A stretch of 62,847 nt of DNA, filler included. It is 12 parts of 12 records of this genome, joined end to end, with 100 filler letters (N's around TTAATTAATTAA, not from the genome) between each part and the next. Parts side by side here need not be neighbours in the genome. Positions count along the whole stretch, not along the records: positions 8,187 to 11,475 come from SRR7504441_27692; 11 more parts are not named here. One strand, written 5' to 3'. A model generated the notes under the pieces. That model was not told the origin of the DNA. It made no database searches and saw only the letters and a list, made by a program, of their open reading frames with translations. The position numbers and the translations under genes were made by a program. Below are positions 8,087 to 44,200 of the stretch, piece by piece. Each line of letters opens with the position of its first letter. Position 1 is the stretch's first letter.

Positions 8087-8186
8087 NNNNNNNNNNNNNN
8101 NNNNNNNNNNNNNNNNNNNNNNNNNNNNNNTTAATTAATTAANNNNNNNNNNNNNNNNNNNNNNNNNNNNNNNNNNNNNNNNNNNN
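8087..8186. other. Artificial contig spacer
   Basis: N44-TTAATTAATTAA-N44; stops in all six frames; identical at every gap. Confidence 0.97.
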
Positions 8187-8314
8187 CAGCCCATCGGCCC
8201 AACGCTTAGCCCACCCCGGCTCGGTGGCGACTCTAGGTCCGGTCTGTTACTTCAGACAGACGGGTGAAATGCCAACTGAACGGCAATCCCGAGTGAGCAC
8301 AGTCCCCGCTGTTC

Positions 8315-9705
8315 ATGAAGAGAAAGGCCGCCGACGGTGCCGAGCAGGAGGTCGGGAGTGATGGCCGAGTAGTGCTGGTCTCCGGTTTCTGGGACCTGCT
8401 GCATTCTGGGCATGTCAGCTTCCTCAACGCTGCGGCCGAGCTCGGGGCGGTGCACGTTGTGGTCGGATCGGACGCCAATTTCTCTGCGCTCCGGGGCGTG
8501 TCGCCGGTCTTCTCCGAGCAGGAGCGGCGGTTCATGGTTTCGCAGCTCAAGGCGGTGTGCAAGGCGTGGGTGACTGACGGGATGGGCGAGCTGGACATGG
8601 AAGCCGACCTGGACCGGATCAAGCCGGCCGTGTTCGTCACCTCGTGCGGCGACGGCGCGGACGGCGACAAGACTCTGGCGGCCAAGCGGTCCATGTGCGA
8701 GCGTCGGGGGATCGAGTTTGTGGCGCAGCAGCGGCGGGAGGACACGGCCATCCAGCAGCTCGGCACCGGACCCCGATCGGCCACGGGGATCAAGGTGCGC
8801 CGGCGGCAGCCGGCCGGTGACGCTGGGCGGGCAGGCGCTCATCACCGCGGCGCAGACCAGCGCCAAGCGGCCGGAGGACCAGGTGGCCACTCGGACCGTG
8901 GAGAAAGAGGACCTCACCGCATTCCCGTGGCGCGTCTGCCTGGCCTGAGGCTGGCTCGACCAGCCGTGGGTTTCGTCTATATTTCCTGGTTTGCACAGTC
9001 TATATCAGGCCGGCTGACCGCTGGACAGGCTCGACGATCGTAGTCAACGTAAACCCGCACCCGCAGTTCAAGACACGGTCCGGGCTGGCCACTTCAACCC
9101 GCCAAGTCGGGCAGCGGCTGTGGGGCACCCGCCAAGGCTCCGCGCCACCTAGTTCCACAAGCAACGAACAGCTCGCCCGCTTCCTGTTCAATGCCGAGAA
9201 TTCAATCGACTGCGAGTATGTGAGCGGATCTCAGGATGCACTCGGGCTGATGCTACCAGGGATCTCGCGGCTCGATTTCCGAGGCTCGTATTGGCCCGAG
9301 AACATCGAGACTCAATCGAGTGCCGAGCTGTGCACCTGGCTAGAGTCGGTGCTGTGGCTGGTCCCACTCCCGAGTCGGCCTGAAGGCTACGATCCGCTCA
9401 AGACCAAGAATTTGACCAAGGCGGTCGTGGCGCGGCTGGCGAGTGCATCCAGGCAGGCTTGGGAGAGCCTGATGAGCAAGAATGCGCCTGGGCTGGGCAA
9501 AGCGCTGACCGAAACAATGGTCTGCTGGAGGGAAATGCTGCCCGAAACAGTGCCCGACGGGTCAGAAGAGTGGGTACAGCCTTACAAGGACAGCCACGGG
9601 TACTTATTTTCCGGAGCAGGGGGTGGCTTTCTGATGGTCGTGTCGGAGAAGGAGGTGCTCAATGGGTTCCATATTGAGATTAGGACTAAGCCGATCTGGA
9701 ACTAA
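8315..9705 (+). CDS. Cytidylyltransferase-like (HxGH) plus GHMP-kinase-like fusion protein; 2 introns; in-frame TGA at 8946-8948 (possibly a disrupted allele)
   Basis: N-domain VSGFWDLLHSGH...ERRFMV. Introns 8795-8834 and 8989-9028 (40 nt each, GT-AG). C-domain PWRVCLA*GWLDQPW, RSGLATST, SGSQDALG, SGAGGG match GHMP-type motifs. Confidence 0.75.
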
Positions 9706-9863
9706 CCAATCACCTATATAGAACTAACCCACCACTCTGACACCCTTAAACAAAAAGATTTAGAAATCGGGTCGTAGGGTCAAGATAATTGTAATAAAGA
9801 TATTACGTATACAACAACATTTCATTTTTACGAACTCGTAGGTGAACATAGATTACATTTAGA

Positions 9864-11361
9864 TTACATTAAACCATCGCCACCCATGACCAACACGTGA
9901 CCCAGTCCCTCGATCACCTGCCCAGACTGCAGCCCCTGCAGGCACTGCTCCACCACGAACTGCACGAACTGATCCGGGCCCACCACTTGCCCGCCCATCT
10001 GCCGCATCATCCCCTCGTGATCTCGACTGAACGCCCTGCTGATGGGCTCGAGCTCATGCGCCTCGAGGTGGCCATCACCATTCGCGTCAAGTTTGCAGTA
10101 GCACTGCCGCAGAGACTCGGTGATGAAGGTCTCGAAATCAGCGACGCTGATCTGATGGCTTGAACGATCCTTGGCACCGATCATGTCCAGCAGCTTCTGG
10201 TTGTTGGCTGGCGTCCAATTTTTACTGAGTGCCTGGCCACTTGAGGTTGGCTTGTCGTCGAGTGAGGTGCAGCGAGTGACAGTGGGTCACTTTGGAGAGT
10301 TGTGGGGTTTGGCGATGCACCCATCAGCTAGCGAGTGCGTCACGGTGGGTGATGATTGCATGCTACGATGCTGGGATCTGGAGCGGAAGGAGCCGTTGCC
10401 AGACAAGGCTGTTGAAGTGGCTTATACCATGTCCTCACTCGACGACAAGCCAACCTCAAGTATCTCGTTGTTTCGCGTTCCCACCACCACCCGATCGCCC
10501 ACACAATCCAACGCCTTCACTAGATGCTTCCTACCCAGATCCAACTTCCGCTCCGGCTGTTGCTGATTCCAGCCCCACACCTTGACCTTGCCACCAATTC
10601 CAGCACTCAAAAATCCTCCGTCGATCAAACAAATTGCCGAGACCGCTGCATTATGGATCCGCAGCTTGCTATGCAGTTGACCCTCCATGTCAAACATGAA
10701 AAGGAACCCATTGTCGCCCCCGGCCGCCACCCTCTGCCCAGGAGCCTCCAGTGCACACAACACGTTTCTAGGTGCATCCGCCAGACCAAAGCTCCCGGCC
10801 TTCTCCCGTAGCCCACTCACACCCTGGCTCCAGAACTTGATATGCGATGCCCGGCTGGAGCTGGAGCATGTAGGCGCGCTCCCGGCCGTTTTGCACTGCA
10901 GTCGGCCACGGGGCTCCAACCCACCTAAAGCCAGGCTCAGAACAGGCAGTCAAGGCCTCTCACGGAGTGATGCCGCCTGATCCGGTGCAGCCTTTGTGGT
11001 GTCGGTCTCTCGCTGCCTCGTTACTGAAGCTTCGTAGACAAATCCAGCACCGAGGCAACAAAGCCTCCGCGTTGGCGGCTGCCGCTCGGTTCCAAACCGC
11101 CCGCTCGCTGGCTGTGTGCCTTTCAACTGATCCTGCGGGCGGTAGCGCAGGCTCTGCCGGTCTGGTGAGCCAGTGCCCCGGTGAGACTCCCTGCTCAGAC
11201 GCCCGCTCCAGCTCCACCCTCACCCGCCGGTCGGCTGCCCGGAAGCACCGGCCCACGTGCTCGGCCAGTCGGGCCACGGTCTGCGGTTGGGCGCACACCG
11301 GGCAGAGAGGAAGCGGGATCTCTCCGATTGTGGCTGAGCCCGGTTGAGGCAGGTCCTCCAT
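9864..11361 (-). CDS. C2HC zinc-finger / EML(EMAP)-type WD40 / EF-hand gene, interrupted as assembled by an internal inversion at 10268-10432
   Basis: CPVC..HVGRC and CWIC..HHKGC fingers. EML motifs HIKFW, GDNG, VVGTRNNEILE lie on the minus strand, but their continuation GHFGELWGLAMHP...GDDCMLRCWD lies on the plus strand. EF-hand DANGDGHLEAHE. The junction between the zinc-finger and WD40 parts (about 10925-10975) is unresolved. Confidence 0.6.
10239..10461. repeat. Perfect 29-bp inverted repeat pair (10239-10267 and 10433-10461) flanking a 165-bp segment
   Basis: ACTTGAGGTTGGCTTGTCGTCGAGTGAGG at 10239 and its exact reverse complement CCTCACTCGACGACAAGCCAACCTCAAGT at 10433. Confidence 0.95.
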
Positions 11362-11475
11362 CCTAAGCGGCCCGTCGCACCCGCGCATATGCGTGTCCCG
11401 AGCCGCGCCAGTCGACCAGGCCCACGCTGCCCTGCATCACTACTTGTCCATTTCTTGCATTTGATTTTACTGTCG

Positions 11476-11575
11476 NNNNNNNNNNNNNNNNNNNNNNNNN
11501 NNNNNNNNNNNNNNNNNNNTTAATTAATTAANNNNNNNNNNNNNNNNNNNNNNNNNNNNNNNNNNNNNNNNNNNN
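11476..11575. other. Artificial contig spacer
   Basis: N44-TTAATTAATTAA-N44. Confidence 0.97.
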
Positions 11576-14500
11576 GACCCATCGGACAGCTTAGGGCGGG
11601 CGTGTGGTCCACACACGCAGTTATGGCAGACTCACATCCATAACCGTGTTCTCTCCCTGGTGCTGCCACGTGATGCTCTCCCTGGCAGCCTCGAGCAGAT
11701 CTTCCTCGACTGTACTAGCGATTCCATCATCGCTCATACGATCACCCTGCAGCAGACATAACGTAAGCAGGATCAGTCACAGCAACATGCCATACCGGTC
11801 TGGATAGGTCAAGCCCGGTCGCTTTCAGCCTCGGAATGATGACAGTCAAGTCACCTTGTAAAGGCAGCAAGCTCAGCACGCCTTAAGCTCAGGTGAGAGC
11901 ACCGTGTAGCACAATGTCGTTGAAAATGCTGAGCTCGTTGCCTGGAACATAGTCTTCATAACTCTCTAGCAGCGCCTCGCTGAGGTCCGTCAATAGAACT
12001 GTCTTTGGACCTAATGTCTCTATATCCTCATCTATGTTGACGAACTCAGAGAAGAGTCGCAGTTGCGCGCAGAGGAATGAGCACAGCTCGAATACTTGCA
12101 TGCCACTGCCCAATCGCGTGTGTGTCAGCTTGGTGAACATGGTGAAGCGATTATGTAAGACTTTGACCAAAAAGTGCTGCTCAAACCAAGAATCGGCTTC
12201 AACCGCCTCCTCGTCCACATGTACAAATGCAGCGTTCATTGGCGTCTGTAACACAGCAGCATCAGCTAAAGACCGCCCACACAGTGGCGCATAGGTTCAA
12301 GCAGGCACTGCAGGCATTGGATACCCTCGACATGTACTTGGTGATCTCTTTGTCGTGTGGGAACTTCCCCAGGAGCAAAGAACACAGTGGGTGCACTTCC
12401 TGCAACATTCAGGTAAGACAGTCACCCCCCAACTCATGACAGGCGCAGCTGTCACCTGTTGCACTGTTGTGTATAGCTTCCAATTCTGTCGCAGTCGCCA
12501 CTCGCACTGGATCCTGTGGATCTGATGAAGGCAGTGCTCGTAGCTTTCGTTGTCATAGTTCTCCAGCGAGACACCAGCGGACATGATCCCGAAGACCAGC
12601 TTCCTAAGATCGTCGTGTGGCTTATCAGGGCAAAAGTTCCTTAGAATTACATACAGCTCGCCCATGCTTTCAGCCCTGCTCTCCTCGTTCCTCTCGAACA
12701 GCTCTATGAAGATACCAAGGAAGAGCTGAGTGAACAGTATCGTGGCAATCATGACATAAAGCATGAAGTACCCCATGACGATCTTATATGTGTAAGTAAC
12801 AGTCCAGTCCATCACCCCATTCCAACCTTCACCCACAAGCAGCTGCATTATGGTAGCCAATGCGTTGAATGGAGTGCTCCAATAGTTCTGCTCGTCATGG
12901 GAGGGCACTTCCAAATCCCTGAACAAAACATATCCTAGGGTTGCAAACAAATACATGAAGAACAGCAACAAGGTGAAGTAAACCGTCACGGGTTCGATCC
13001 CCGTTGAGACGGAATACAGCAATGCGGAAAACTGAGGCACCGTCACAAGGCACCGGAAGGTGGATAGAGCCATAATCATCTGAAGTGCTTGAGTCTCCTT
13101 TCTGTCGGCGAAGCTAGAGTCCATCCTGTCAATCAAATAGAAGACGAGGCCAAAGAATGAGATACAGACAAAGCAGAACTGCCACTGCCGCTGCAGCTTA
13201 GTCTCGGGTTCAGTATTCCTCCCCCAGCGCAGGTATGTGAAAACACCCTTGAGCTGGATAACTCTCAGTACCATGTCTACAGCGTGCGCACTGGTAAACG
13301 CAACTGCGAGAAAGTTTAGGAACTCCTCGTTAATCTTAGTGCCGTAGGATGCCAAGAAAAGGAGCTGCACAGCTGTCACGGCAGTAACAATCTTGTTCCC
13401 GTCCGCTTCGGTGGCACCATAGAACTGGTCCTGTGCCACCCGCTGTGCCTTCTTCAATTCGTAATCAAGAAGAATCCGTCGCTGCAATAGCATCTTGAGC
13501 CGGTCCTGCCTTTCGTTCCTTTCGTCCAGACTGAGAGTCACTTCGGGAGTCTCGAGACCATCTTCCAGTTGCTTTTTTGTCATATCTAAGCGGACAATCG
13601 ACATCATCTTGTGGAACACCTCGTTGAAATGCAGCTCAGGCATTAGCTTCAGATATGTGCAAATCTCAGCAAACTCTGTGAAGTCAATACTGTTACTTTC
13701 ATTGATGTCCAATAAGTCGAACACCCGCCCCGAGTAGTCTAGCATCACGCCTTTCATCTTCTCAAGATCGTGCTGGGAGACAGGCTCAGGATCCATTCGG
13801 TTGACCTCGCGCTCAAGTTTGACCCGCTCTAGCTTGACACGCTGAGCTTTACGTTCGGCAATCTTTGCATTGAGCACCCTCTTCTTCTGCTGATGCTCAC
13901 AAAGCTTGAGAAGAACTGCCTTCTGGTTCTCACTCTCCCAGAACATTGCCATCATCATAGTGAACGATTTGCGCTGTATCGTCAGTTTGTTCTCCAACGT
14001 GTCCTCCAGCTGCTCTTTGTATTCTTCTTTGCTGACAGCTCTCCGATCTGGCAGTTTATCTAGCCTCGCTCCTGGAAGATTGTATGTCCACAGGCAGAAA
14101 GTTGGAGCCACGCCATTAAACAAACGCTCTTTCTCGATCATGGTCATCTCCACAACTTGTGCATTGTATTGACTTTGGAAGGTAGCAATAAGGAGGGAGC
14201 CCAATAAGAAAAGTCCTATGAGGGTCCAGACAACAAAGAAGAAAAAGTACCAATCAGAGAGTTCCAAAGCAGCAGGGACAATGTCAGCATAGTTCTCCCC
14301 AGTCGCGACAAGGACAAACATCTCTTTGAAAGAGTCCATAAAGTCATCAAGACTTGGCTGGTCAGAACATGTTTCGCAATTTGTCATCTCGGTGCGGAAC
14401 AACAGCAAGGCGAGCACTGCTGATACAATTATGGTCATGAAAAACACTAGGAAGACGGAGAACGACTGGTATATTGTGAGAAAGAAGAGAATCAGAGCCT

Positions 14501-17500
14501 TGAATACCTTCCTTTCTCTCCACAAAAGCATCCAGGGACGTGTGAATCGTAAGGGATCGGCATATCCGCACGCCTTGACTATGAGGAAGATGACATTCAG
14601 GATCACAGAACCCAGATTGAGGGCCTTAAGCCAAGAATATGGCATGTTGAGTTCTTTACGCTGCACAAGTGTGAAATAGAAGTCCATGCCCGCATCAAGC
14701 AACAGCACCTGCCAACAAATCAGCCATGTTGGCCGCAGCCAGCTATGCTGTCTTGCTTACCATAATGACTGTGAACTCTAGACCAAGGACTACCCCATCA
14801 TCACTAGCACTGGCATACTCGAAGGCGATAAAGAGATAGATGAGCACTACCATCAGGCATTGCCAATTTGGATTCTCTGTCATGGTTGCATTCATGAAGG
14901 CGAGGACTGATCTCCTTTTGGCCTTCTGAAGGTCCCAGACCTCGGCTTCATCATCGACCTGGTCATCCTTGTTGGCTACAGTCGACGAGGTGCCTTGGCC
15001 AAACAAGGTTCCAGAGCTAGCGCCATTTGAAGCTGAGGCAGATGACTCGTCACCACCGGTGTAGTCGTCATAACTGTCTTGAAGGTGCTCCAAATGCTTA
15101 CTCGAAAATCCCCTGACACTAGCAGCATGCTGCAGCATGATCAACCGGTCAACCCCTCCATCGCCTCTCTGTGCTTCGGAGAGGAATTCGATGGCACTGT
15201 TAGAGCGGTGCTGCGACCTAGCATAGTTTTGTACCATCTTTTCCTTGAGGAATCGCATGGTAGAGCAAACAAGTTCAGCTGCTTTTAGCCTGACATTTTG
15301 TTCGTAGTTTTCATAGCTCCATTTGTAGGTCCTAAGGTCTTTCAGTCTTTCGAGTTCTTCGTAATTGTCTTTTCTTCGTTTCTCCTCCTTGGCCCGGTCA
15401 TGTTCGTCACATTCCTCACCAAAGTCCTCGAACACCCTTCTCTCAACAACATCGAGACGGTCATCCTTCAAGTAAGTGACGACAGCAACAAGAATGAACG
15501 CCATAAGAATGAACCCAACCAACAAGAGTACAAACGAGAGGTATTGCTGACTATCTGATGTCGAGTAGAAGTAATCGTAGCTGGCAGTCACTACCTGCGT
15601 CCAGTCGAGATCAACAGGCATGCCCACGCGCAGTATCTTCATGACAGGGTCGCCTTTAGCTTGGAAGTAGCCCTGGGATGAGCTCCAATCGTACGAGAAC
15701 CAACCAGCAATAGTCTGGCTCTGTGATGAAATGGAGCTGTCGCCATACGCATAGGCAGAAACAGTTGCTTGGTCCCGTGAGCTTGAAACCACGCTTTCAT
15801 CTATTGTGGAGGCCCCAATCATTGAAGCTGAGTGAGTCTGAACAATCCAGGAGCGCCCATCGCCGTCTGGGTCGAGCGCTCCGTTGCTCAAGCTAGTGGA
15901 GATGTCTGCTAGCGCCAGGTCTGCACCAAAGATACCAGCCAAACCTGATGCGTAGGTGATTGGCCTCACATTGCTTATCCCAGCTTTGGCATCAGCTCCA
16001 GCATATGAGTAGACGTCAGACCAATATGCTCCAGTAGGGTAGGTAGACGATGAGAGCCCCTGATATACTGCTAATCCAGTGATGTACCAGGGCCGTGCAG
16101 TCGCAGCGTACTTGTAGGTAGAAGTGTACAGCGTGTTTGCAGTGCGCTGTTTGGTGGAGGTGTCATATTCATATTCAGTGTACAGATAGTTTGTGCTGGC
16201 ATCAGCCACAGCAATGACTTTTCCCGTCCAAGTTGAAGTGGTGTCGCTCGATGTTCTGCCACAGCCAATAAAGTATCCGTTCGGGAATCCAATGTAGGCA
16301 TATGAAAGGTCTGGATAGCTGTCCAAGTAATCGCAGAACATCTGGTCCAGGTTGGAAGTCGCGAGCGTTGCAGCACACTGGTCCCTGGTGAATGCAGCAA
16401 CTGCGAGGTAGAGAGGGTCACTGACCGCTAAATCATTAAACCGTTGCAGCTGGAGCTCCCAATCGTTTGACTGCAGTGCGTTCACTTCATGTGCCATCAT
16501 CACTGTAAACTCAGTGGACTCGAGAGAGTACTGTGCAGAGCTCAAAAGACACGTCCTGACCGCTTTGTAGACAGCATCGGTGGAAACAATGCTCCACCCT
16601 AGCCAGATGACCACCAGAACGAGCATGGTAATGCTCATAAAAATTACCGCTTTCCGGGTCTGACTCTCTACAAATTTGTCCCTGCTCTCATCACCCTTCT
16701 TGTCCTCATCTGAGCTGAAGAATTTCTCCCGAATAGGAAAGTATGCCCAGACACAGAGCCCTATGACACCAAGCACACAGATGATGATTCCGGCGAGTGC
16801 ATAAGCTGATTCATCGCCATATACCTCATAGTGAGTCAACACACTGAAGATGAGCAAGCGCAGCCCATAGGTGTCCGTGAAAGAAAATGCTGCCACAGTG
16901 TCTGTGTTGTACTCAGCAACGTAGCCAACTTGACTGTAAGTGGTCAGGCTGTCCCAGTTGCTGCCAATGCTGCTGTATACACCGCTCGAAGTGGTGCTCA
17001 CACTCTTGTCAGCATAAGCTGTCACGTCTGTCAGGCTAGTTATCGTACTTCCCTCAAGGTCACTGAAACCCACCAGTGTTCCGGTCTGGTCGGCGACATA
17101 AGAAATGCCGTAACTGGGGTGGTAGAATGACATCAGATAGTTCATATGCTTGCTTTCGATGTAGCTGACCGCAACCCCTTTGGTCGTCCCTGTGCTGTCG
17201 TCTATCCTAAGCACATGGTACTGCTGAAGCGCCTGACCACAACCGACTTAGCTCGCTGACCGGGGGCAGCCAGATTACCCCAGTGAACTCGGAGAGGCTC
17301 GCAGAGGTCTCCCATTGCCGGCCGCTCTGTGCAATGCCCGCGGTGTACCAGCTCTGGGAAGTGACGCTATACCCAGCCACCTGCCCAGCAGCTCGAGCTG
17401 TCGACAGCCGGGCCCGCACCTCGGCAACATACGTGTTGAAGTCCATCGAGTATGTGTAGACACACGTGCTCCCGGGACAGTTGGAGCCAGTCTGGGTGAT

Positions 17501-32474: not shown

Positions 32475-32495
32475 GGGGGGGGGGGGGGGGGGGCA

Positions 32496-36186: not shown

Positions 36187-36267
36187 CTGCCAGCTCGCTC
36201 GCCCCCTCCCCTCGGCCCCGCCCTCGGCCCTCGGCGGCGCTACCCCCCCCCCCCCCCCCCCCCCCCC

Positions 36268-41272: not shown

Positions 41273-44200
41273 ATGCGTCGGCGTGCGGCGGGAGAGGACG
41301 CCTCGGCCGACGGCGAGAGCGGGCAGGTGGCCACGGTGGGCAGAGGCCGGCCGTACGTTCGGATCGCGCTAGGGATCGCGATGGGTGTAGGGCTGCTCAT
41401 CTTAGCTGGAATGGCCCGCTGGCCTGGGGGGGCGCACCCTCCTTCGGATCAGTGGGTGGAGCACCAGGACGAGGCTTCGCACCGGCCGTATTGGTTCAAC
41501 CACGCCACTGGCGAGTCGGCCTGGACTGCGCCCCCATCGGCCGCACCCCCATCGGCCGCACCCCCAGCCCCGCCGCCGGCTGCCGACCCCCCGCCTGAAT
41601 CGACTCAGCCCAAGGGATGGCACAAGTATACAGATAAGGAGTCTGGCAAGCCGTATTGGTTCAATCACGACACTGGCGAGTCCTCCTGGACTCAGCCCGG
41701 CGCGCCCCCGCCGCCACCGCTGACTCAGAGGAGGGATGCGAAGGCCGAGAGTCAGAAACCCGAGCCCGAGCCTACGGGCTGGCAAAAGCACCACGACAAG
41801 GCAACCGGGCAGGACTACTGGTTCAATCACGACACCGGCAAAGCCTCGTGGACCGACCCCAGGGCCGCCAAGGGCCTAGCCACGCCGCCGCCGCCACCCG
41901 GCTCGCCGCCACCTCAGAAGAATGACAACTGGCAACAACACCACGACGAGGCGACCGGGCGCAAGTACTGGTTCAACCACGTCACCGGCCAGTCCTCGTG
42001 GTCTAAGCCGGGCAAGGCGACGTCCAACAAGAAAGTGCCTGGAACAGGAAAGCTTGAGGACGTCAGCGTGCGCGTGAGGTCACCCCGCGAGCAATCGCTG
42101 CCGCAGGCTAAGAGCAGTCTTCCCGTGGCGCACGAACGGCCCGTAGCCGCGAGCAGCCAGGGCGGCGGCACGGCCAACGGGCCGTTCGTGCGGCACGAGA
42201 AGACTGATATTCGGGTGCACGACTACGGTTGCGAGGGCTCTGACGCTCCTGATGTATGCCACTGGCTGGTACGGATATGGTCGGCTGTAGTGTTCTCAGT
42301 GGCGGCAGGTCGCGGACGCGGCGGCGGGGATGGCCCGGTGCCAGGGGGACCACCGGTGCGGCGCGTTTGTGCTCACTAGAGACAAGACGGACGGCAACCA
42401 ATATTCGGCGTGAGCTGATCCGATTCGCGCTCGAGCTGATCAATCGACGGCTGCAGGTGGCTGAAAATGAGGGACTCGCGGTACGCAGCGTCGTACGCCA
42501 TCATGGTGAAGAGTCACTTGCTGCCTGCTGACAACGTGGATACCTATGTGCTAGACTTTGATGGATCAGAGCCAGCTGAGCCAGCTGCTGCTAGCACAGT
42601 TCATGCGCCGCCTTTGAAGCCCTACAAGGCTGACGAGGGTCGCGAGGCTGCAGCGCCAGTAAGACACTCGGAGGCCAGCTCCAGTGTTAAGGGCGTGCCG
42701 TTGGACACGGCTATTCCGGAAGAATTCGAGGCGACTTTTAAGCAGTTTGAAGGTCAAGATTTCGCCGGGCATGACTTCGACTGCACGGGCAGTAGAGTGG
42801 CAGGCGGCTGCCTGCATACAGTCGACGGCGTGGCGGCAGCGATGACCCTGTGCAAGAACGAACCGGAGTGTGGCGGTTTTGTGATCTTTCACACAGCGAA
42901 TAAGAATGATCCCGAGAAGTACACCACGTGGCTCAAGCTGCGAGAATGGAACAGCGTGGCAAAGAACCTGCGGTCTAACAGTGATCTCTCAGCATATATT
43001 CTGAAGGATATGGGCCCCAAGCCTAAGTTCTCGTCCTCTTTCACGCCCCGGCTTTACCCTGATTTCAAGCCAGTGTTTGGAGCGGACAGTGGTGTGTGGG
43101 ACATGGAAACTGAGTGGAAGGGTCCGCCGGAGGAGGCGGCAATCCGAGCAGACACTGAACGACTTGAAGTTGTGCGGAGTGCGATGAAACACGCGTGGGA
43201 CGGGTATGTCCAGTACGCGTGGGGCCAAGACGAGCTCAAACCTGTCTCTAACAGAGGATCGAACTGGCTCGGGATGGGTGCAACAATCATCGACTCTCTC
43301 GACACGCTCTGGATTATGGGTTTACACCAGGAGTTTGATCGCGCCCGAACTTGGGTGGCCACGGGTTTTAACACAAACGTGAACAGCTTTGTGTCGTTCT
43401 TTGAGACAACAATTCGCTGTCTGGGTGGACTGATTGCTGCGTTTGAGATGTCCGGCGATCAAGTATTTCTGGATAAAGCCAAAGTGCTCGGCGACAAATT
43501 GATCAGGTCGGTATTTTTATTATTATCATTATAATTATCATTGATGCGTCAATGGCACAACCACAGCATCCACTCAGGGTTGGCTGGCAGGGCGTTCAAG
43601 ACCAAGTCCGGCTTTCCTATGGCCCAGATCAATCTTGCCTCGGGGGCCGCCGAGCCGCCCACCTGGACATCTGGCTCGGTCTCCCACCAGCCTCGAAACC
43701 CTCTGACCGCCCGATCCGGCAGATTATTCTTGCGGAAATTGGAACCGTCCAACTCGAGTTTAAGGCAACTGCTGGCTCGAACTCTTGCTGAGTTTGTTGG
43801 CCGCACAGGCGCTGTCCCGACACACGCGCGACCCAAAGTATCACCGGACAGCGCACTCCGTGTATGATAAGCTTGAGCGGATCACGAGGGACGATGGGCT
43901 GTGTCCGCTGTTCCTCAACCACAACACTGGTCAGTTTTCAGGCGGGCAGATCTCGCTAGGGGCAATGGGCGACTCGTATTACGAGTACTTGATCAAGCTA
44001 TACCTGTATACTAAGCGGACTGAGCCGCAGTACAAACGGATGTGAGCTGAGCGCTCTGAGTTGCACACGCTGACCGAGCCGGTAGGTACCTAAAGTCTTT
44101 GGACGGGATACTCAAGAAGCTAGTATTCCAGACCTCGCCATCCGGACTCACCTACGTGGCCGAGATGAACGGGAATAAGCCGGTGCACAAGATGGACCAC

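Follow-up and report, generated by a model that had tools for sequence, protein, structure and literature searches.

The stretch of DNA analysed here, hereafter the window, comprises 62,847 nucleotides (nt) and carries, on a contig of 3,289 bp (8187-11475), a perfect inverted repeat with two 29-nt arms (10239-10267 and 10433-10461) enclosing a 165-nt spacer. The repeat sits where a fragment of an EML-type WD40 gene meets the 3' part of an EF-hand gene, both read from the minus strand; the spacer is inverted relative to the remainder of the EML-type sequence, and homology to either gene is lost at the arm borders. Our preferred interpretation, to which we give about even credence, is that the inverted repeat and its inverted spacer are the static scar of a template-switch mutation in a pseudogene-like EML/EF-hand mosaic.

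Geometry of the inverted repeat

As the original prediction had stated, the arms are perfect inverted copies: 10239-10267, taken on the plus strand, and 10433-10461 are 100% complementary over all 29 nt, with 165 nt between them. Complementarity stops abruptly and extends by no further base, either outward or inward. Even with up to three mismatches tolerated, the 62,847 bases contain the 29-mer at exactly two places, and two matches to it were found in none of 100 shuffled sequences. No other perfect inverted repeat of at least 20 nt within 2 kb exists across the whole window. Folded as a single strand, the region forms a 29-bp stem with an energy of -62.4 kcal/mol (z = -7.7). Elsewhere in the window, an imperfect inverted repeat occupies 42103-42218, its 42-nt arms being 83% complementary and separated by 32 nt.

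The EML-type fragment and the orientation of the spacer

Homology to EML proteins is divided between the two strands. The minus-strand frame 10949-10422 matches Pfam Beta-prop_EML over its residues 35-165 (profile positions 131-266 of 267, E = 2.8e-15), and the plus-strand frame over the spacer matches Beta-prop_EML_2 (profile positions 1-40 of 266, E = 2.7e-10). Both scores are under the Pfam cut-offs (57 against 88.2 bits and 40.5 against 90 bits, respectively) because both matches are domain fragments. On the EML1 structure 4ci8_A (655 residues), minus-frame residues 34-169 align with chain positions 232-372 and plus-frame residues 32-91 with positions 369-428. The same arrangement is found with P0118, a 275-amino acid protein and the nearest relative found, in which minus-frame residues 36-170 align with 39-207 and plus-frame residues 30-72 with 202-244, the latter at 51% identity. 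The two pieces are collinear with the Pfam EML models, with 4ci8_A, and with P0118 only after the spacer has been flipped. The spacer thus appears to be the reverse complement of its ancestral order, and these three comparisons bear out the earlier proposal that flipping gives the order native to EML proteins.

Working along the minus strand, the fragment of the first propeller (HIKFW…NNEI) occupies 10462-10845, its homology beginning at 10844/10845; the preceding stretch, 10846-10959 on the same strand, is without EML homology. The right arm (10433-10461, minus strand) is the native continuation of this piece, reading …NNEI-LEVGLSSSE. The spacer (10268-10432, plus strand) corresponds to the start of the second EML propeller and is inverted relative to the remaining EML piece. 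By homology, the left arm (10239-10267, plus strand) in its LEVGLSSSE reading forms native EML sequence together with the spacer, which lies back to front with respect to the rest. EML homology ends at about profile position 40 of 266, beside the other arm. Overall, the EML-like part corresponds to chain positions 232-428 of the 655 in EML1, with about 230 N-terminal and about 227 C-terminal residues absent, and it falls short of the two complete beta-propellers of an EML protein (131-266 of 267 profile positions in one and 1-40 of 266 in the other).

Searches for further relatives returned distant ones. HMMER with the EML piece gave 4,162 matches at E <= 0.001, with a top identity of 47% over part of the query. 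When words of the EML piece were compared with longer proteins, none of 6,054 candidates matched, and the arm plus spacer, searched in the same way against proteins of similar length, gave no candidate. When JGI metagenome contigs were scanned with the EML piece and with the EF-hand part, none of the 197 and 184 pattern matches, respectively, was confirmed.

The EF-hand part and the second arm

The 3' part of the EF-hand gene lies at 9864-10238 on the minus strand. It starts abruptly at GQALSKNW, ends with a stop codon at 9864-9866, and its frame has a weak match to Pfam EF-hand_7. Its sole match among 189 candidates, within the lengths searched in a word index of 5.8 billion proteins, was P0001 (ENA, 339 amino acids), in which a unit of some 165 residues, containing several EF-hands, is duplicated in tandem. 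Each P0001 unit opens with an EF-hand (residues 9-32 in the first) ahead of the motif GQVLSRNW. With tblastn, P0001 residues 34-152 align with 10238-9870 at 61% identity (E = 3e-41); residues 1-33, which include the EF-hand at 9-32, have no match anywhere in the window. The alignments of both P0001 units begin at 10238, the base adjoining the arm. The first EF-hand of the unit is absent, so that the paired first and second EF-hands at the start of a P0001-type unit are not found here, and the arm border divides the unit halfway through its first EF-hand pair.

The left arm stands second in the sense direction of both genes, and on the minus strand it reads SSLDDKPTSS. Neither P0001, where …ESRELAEL occupies that position, nor the EML relatives contain an equivalent of this reading, which also comes after the end of EML homology; the searches for orthologous DNA were negative.

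Reading frames and the effect of inversion in silico

The three reading frames quoted in the original prediction proved correct. The minus-strand frame from 10949 to 10422 ends …LEVGLSSSE-DMV-stop, the plus-strand frame over 10268-10432 reads VQRVTVGHFGELWGLAMHP...AYTM, and the EF-hand frame has its stop at 9864-9866. Once 10268-10432 had been reverse-complemented by script, the minus strand could be read from 10949 to 9867 as a single frame of 362 codons uninterrupted by stops, ahead of the stop at 9864-9866, so flipping does open the frame as had been claimed. The further claim that the flipped form encodes a full-length protein does not hold: the product would cover only EML1 residues 232-428 of 655 and lacks the first EF-hand. 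Its predicted content is about four propeller blades joined to a defective EF-hand domain. The first methionine of the flipped frame is codon 85. The open frame is weak evidence because, by our estimate, the frames would agree by chance in one of three cases, and because the product still consists of two truncated domains.

Splicing was also considered. A GT-AG intron from 10427 to 10233 would excise the spacer together with the second arm and keep the frame, but the same is true of 105 GT/GC-AG combinations, so this intron is no evidence of splicing.

Evidence from public sequencing runs

Seven public runs (X1 to X7) hold small parts of the contig (shares of 0.05-0.08), and four of them (X1, X2, X3, and X7) were examined. 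Two poly-A RNA runs from different studies cover only 8485-8755 and 9428-9655, which belong to the neighbouring plus-strand gene.

Run X3 provides a 151-nt contig that tracks the window over 10746-10845 and then departs from it. On the minus strand, the loose end reads …EQQAVTYGPG before HIKFW, and the equivalent in P0118 is …ITYGEKHVKFY; the window has …TCSSSSRAS before HIKFW instead. The X3 sequence, in which …VTYGPG runs directly into HIKFW, is the native EML continuation, so that an intact EML gene, about 99% identical to the fragment in the window, exists elsewhere and the piece in the window would be a fragment copy. The window has a third, untidy breakpoint at about 10845-10854, consisting of a 4-nt extra stretch, 5 nt in common with X3, and then unrelated sequence. 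A splice acceptor at 10845/10846 is ruled out, as there is no AG at that site on the minus strand.

Run X2, a marine run from another study, also diverges from the window at 10845/10846. Its 151-nt contig (depth 2) connects 10157-10230 with 10806-10845, both in the same orientation, and the 16 letters at the join are an exact same-strand copy of 10186-10201. This arrangement is a 575-nt deletion spanning the whole repeat and filled by a templated insert, a scar of the type left by polymerase-theta end joining; among the scars described by van Schendel et al. (2016, PMC5068794), those with inserts copied from a nearby flank are its likeness, the 16-nt insert here coming from 29 nt away. On the EF-hand side, the X2 break lies 8 nt from the arm border of the window, and its EML-side end lies a few nt from the window's upstream break. 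The letters of the X2 and X3 loose ends occur nowhere else in the window. The EML-EF mosaic is probably natural, since a second, different haplotype also joins both parts.

A proposed template-switch origin

In the sense direction, the locus begins with the EML fragment through the first arm, followed by reverse-complemented copies of the spacer and of the arm, in that order, and then by the EF-hand gene from GQALSKNW. We propose that a piece of an EML-type WD40 gene of about 607 nt (10239-10845) came to occupy the place of the 5' part of the EF-hand gene. A polymerase, engaged in replication or repair, would have copied the EML sense strand through the whole of the arm, switched there to the complementary strand, copied back the spacer and the arm (194 nt, in reverse complement), and then resumed within the EF-hand gene at GQALSKNW. 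Under the four-point model of such events, this order (L to 1, then 2 to 3 in reverse complement, then onward from 4) is type 3-1-2-4 (mirror 1-3-4-2). The second arm would then be a new 29-nt copy rather than old coding sequence, the repeat would have been absent before the event, and the scar would be static, nothing flipping the segment back and forth. One event of this kind would account for arms that match perfectly and end sharply, for the inversion of the spacer, and for a second arm without homologues, with no need of a pre-existing repeat or a recombinase. The ending of both homologies at the arm borders is likewise predicted by a newly made arm copy. The repeat, the inverted spacer, and the loss of both homologies at the arm borders are observed; that all this happened in one step, and in a cell rather than in a tube, we infer.

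Of the options in the original prediction, the single template-switch event corresponds exactly to a class of mutation already described. In the account of Loytynoja & Goldman (2017, PMC5453318), type 3-1-2-4 / 1-3-4-2 makes up 23% of high-confidence template-switch events; as characterized there, a single event creates a new perfect inverted repeat around a reverse-complemented spacer, and the repeat need not pre-exist. The perfect, sharp-ended repeat described here is of that form. The events of that account are short and local, whereas here 194 nt would have been copied back, with a return point in a different gene. A related class is formed by the microinversions that Potapova, Kondrashov & Mirkin (2022, PMC8755829) document between human and chimpanzee, which are small, precise, and flanked by perfect or near-perfect inverted repeats, and for which template switching or microhomology-mediated break-induced replication is proposed as the cause. 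The microinversions they describe span 17-33 nt, in contrast to the 165 nt here, with 29-nt arms of which one seems to be newly made.

Several observations weigh against a template-switch scar. The 194-nt copied-back fragment exceeds most of the events described in the papers cited here, and a return jump into another gene requires either a deletion or a previous fusion besides. HMMER found no close relative of the EML piece among 1.84 billion representatives, so there is no ancestral DNA for comparison. The segment 10231-10571 is covered by no read or contig in X1, X2, X3, or X7, and the repeat junctions and the orientation of the spacer are known from this assembly alone. The X2 haplotype is represented by a single 151-nt contig at depth 2, and its 18 letters beyond 10845 show little resemblance to the window: 4.5% of placements at random score as well, so that they are at most a weak candidate for a diverged allele of the window's upstream sequence. 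There is also a problem of assembly quality in the window: the contig at 32475-36267 opens with 19 G (32475-32493) and closes with 25 C (36243-36267), which are probably untrimmed homopolymer read tails and a sign of limited read cleaning.

Alternative explanations

The most substantial rival is an artefact made in vitro or during assembly, in which a chimeric fold-back molecule from whole-genome amplification, the polymerase chain reaction, or library construction entered a low-coverage contig and the repeat is absent from the organism. We regard this as possible, although unlikely. Chimeras of multiple displacement amplification, as reported by Lasken & Stockwell (2007, PMC1855051), resemble the present case in joining nearby sequence, here of the same gene, in inverted orientation: 406 of 475 (85%) were inverted, mostly with under 10 kb between the joined segments. 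The assembly is broken into 12 contigs of 3.3-9.5 kb (one with the homopolymer ends just mentioned), the arms are 100% identical, as expected of a very recent product, three breakpoints fall within about 620 nt, the four examined runs give the repeat no independent cover, and the 29-bp stem could itself promote fold-back priming. However, two junctions 194 nt apart in one molecule would be needed, whereas the chimeras of PMC1855051 join two sequences, and 93.5% of the inverted joins under 10 kb in that report have at least 2 bp of complementarity, as against zero on the checkable side of 10432/10433. The join of the EF-hand part to the EML piece in the independent run X2 likewise speaks for a mosaic that is probably natural. 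The argument, made originally, that 29 is a common k-mer size is weak, as a de Bruijn assembler should invent no junction words, and the arm-to-flank junctions must therefore occur in reads or in chimeric molecules. It is improbable, to a greater degree, that the repeat is real and only the spacer was mis-oriented by the assembler, the true locus being a contiguous EML fragment with a 29-nt snap-back insert at the EF-hand junction. Both orientations should share all words of up to 30 nt, so that only words of at least 31 nt across an arm would distinguish them, and the flipped form, which is free of stops, needs just a short inverted insert at a deletion junction; the X2 variant has a templated insert of comparable size (16 nt). 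Present-day assemblers finish at a k well over 30 and would resolve a 29-nt repeat, which counts against mis-orientation, and the open frame is as weak an argument here as above, given the one-in-three chance, the truncated domains, and the want of a start codon before codon 85. Reverse-complement snap-back inserts, of which the 29-nt arm could be one, are a known minor class of the polymerase-theta scars in PMC5068794, but about 85% of the inserts described there were primed within 10 bp of the breakpoint, and most inserts were under 25 bp long, whereas the template here is 165 nt away. That distance and the 29-nt size are at or beyond the usual range of that study, and no enzyme can be assigned from sequence.

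The remaining rival is a programmed or recurrent invertible switch, in which recombination between the arms toggles a truncated and a read-through WD40-EF-hand product. We consider it very improbable, and find nothing in its favour beyond geometry. As in bacterial invertons, inverted repeats (29-nt arms, 165 nt apart) flank a segment whose orientation alters the encoded product, the flip changes the outcome of the frame, and 29 nt of identity could in principle support rare homologous recombination. Neither orientation, however, gives an intact domain or a meaningful product: the constituents are a truncated EML part (EML1 232-428 of 655) and an EF-hand unit whose pair lacks the first hand, the reading of the second arm has no homologue, and no start codon precedes codon 85 in the flipped frame. 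Unlike bacterial invertons, the locus appears to have no functional product either way and no recombinase, and lies among eukaryote-like genes. The earlier statement that no recombinase gene is present on the contig agrees with our Pfam scan of seven open frames, in which there was no recombinase-like match; it carries little weight because a contig of 3.3 kb is too short to exclude one. Run X2, moreover, shows the locus decaying by deletion. We give hardly any credence to a variant of this idea, in which the arms, though born of a template switch, still act as substrates for recombination in a marine protist and the 165-nt segment is an orientation polymorphism that toggles by homologous recombination. 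If true, it would be an intragenic inversion polymorphism in a eukaryote, with the WD40-EF-hand read-through open in some cells or strains and closed in others. A scrambled gene of the ciliate kind was rejected, since both arms have been retained and the sequence is rich in G+C.

Context of the locus

The window is not one molecule: it comprises 12 unlinked contigs of 3.3-9.5 kb each, with G+C contents of 51-64%, separated by 11 linkers of the form N44-TTAATTAATTAA-N44 (a six-frame stop), for example at 8087-8186 and 11476-11575 and at nine further places. Statements of synteny across the linkers are meaningless. The contig carrying the repeat (8187-11475) has such a linker on either side, and no Rfam family was found on its 3,289 bp. 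Upstream of the EML fragment, in another frame, an open frame of 158 codons (10960-11436, minus strand) has no Pfam match and is either a separate gene or non-coding.

On the other side of the EF-hand part, the plus-strand open frame 8297-9043 carries a cytidylyltransferase-like domain and overlaps a second plus-strand frame in a different phase, 8821-9705, which has no Pfam match; the overlap within 8297-9705 suggests one gene with an intron or a frameshift. A 22-nt unit occurs twice in tandem (77% identity) at 9691-9734, in an A+T-richer stretch between the two convergent genes. The next contig has uninterrupted minus-strand frames at 12297-14756 and 14743-17247 (819 and 834 codons, respectively), the first of which carries an Ion_trans domain (E = 2.9e-29). 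Long intron-free genes of this kind suggest an intron-poor marine eukaryote.

Implications

Two points of method follow from this locus. A frame that opens upon flipping speaks for a switch only where the domains of the restored product are intact, and statements about what is present on "this contig" need to be checked against the linkers, since windows can join unlinked contigs. The biological importance of the locus is little. If natural, it would nevertheless be a clean and unusually large case (194 nt) of a template switch that, in a single step, made a repeat and inverted its spacer, and, beside a haplotype with a templated-insert deletion, it would offer a small view of error-prone repair in a poorly sampled marine eukaryote.

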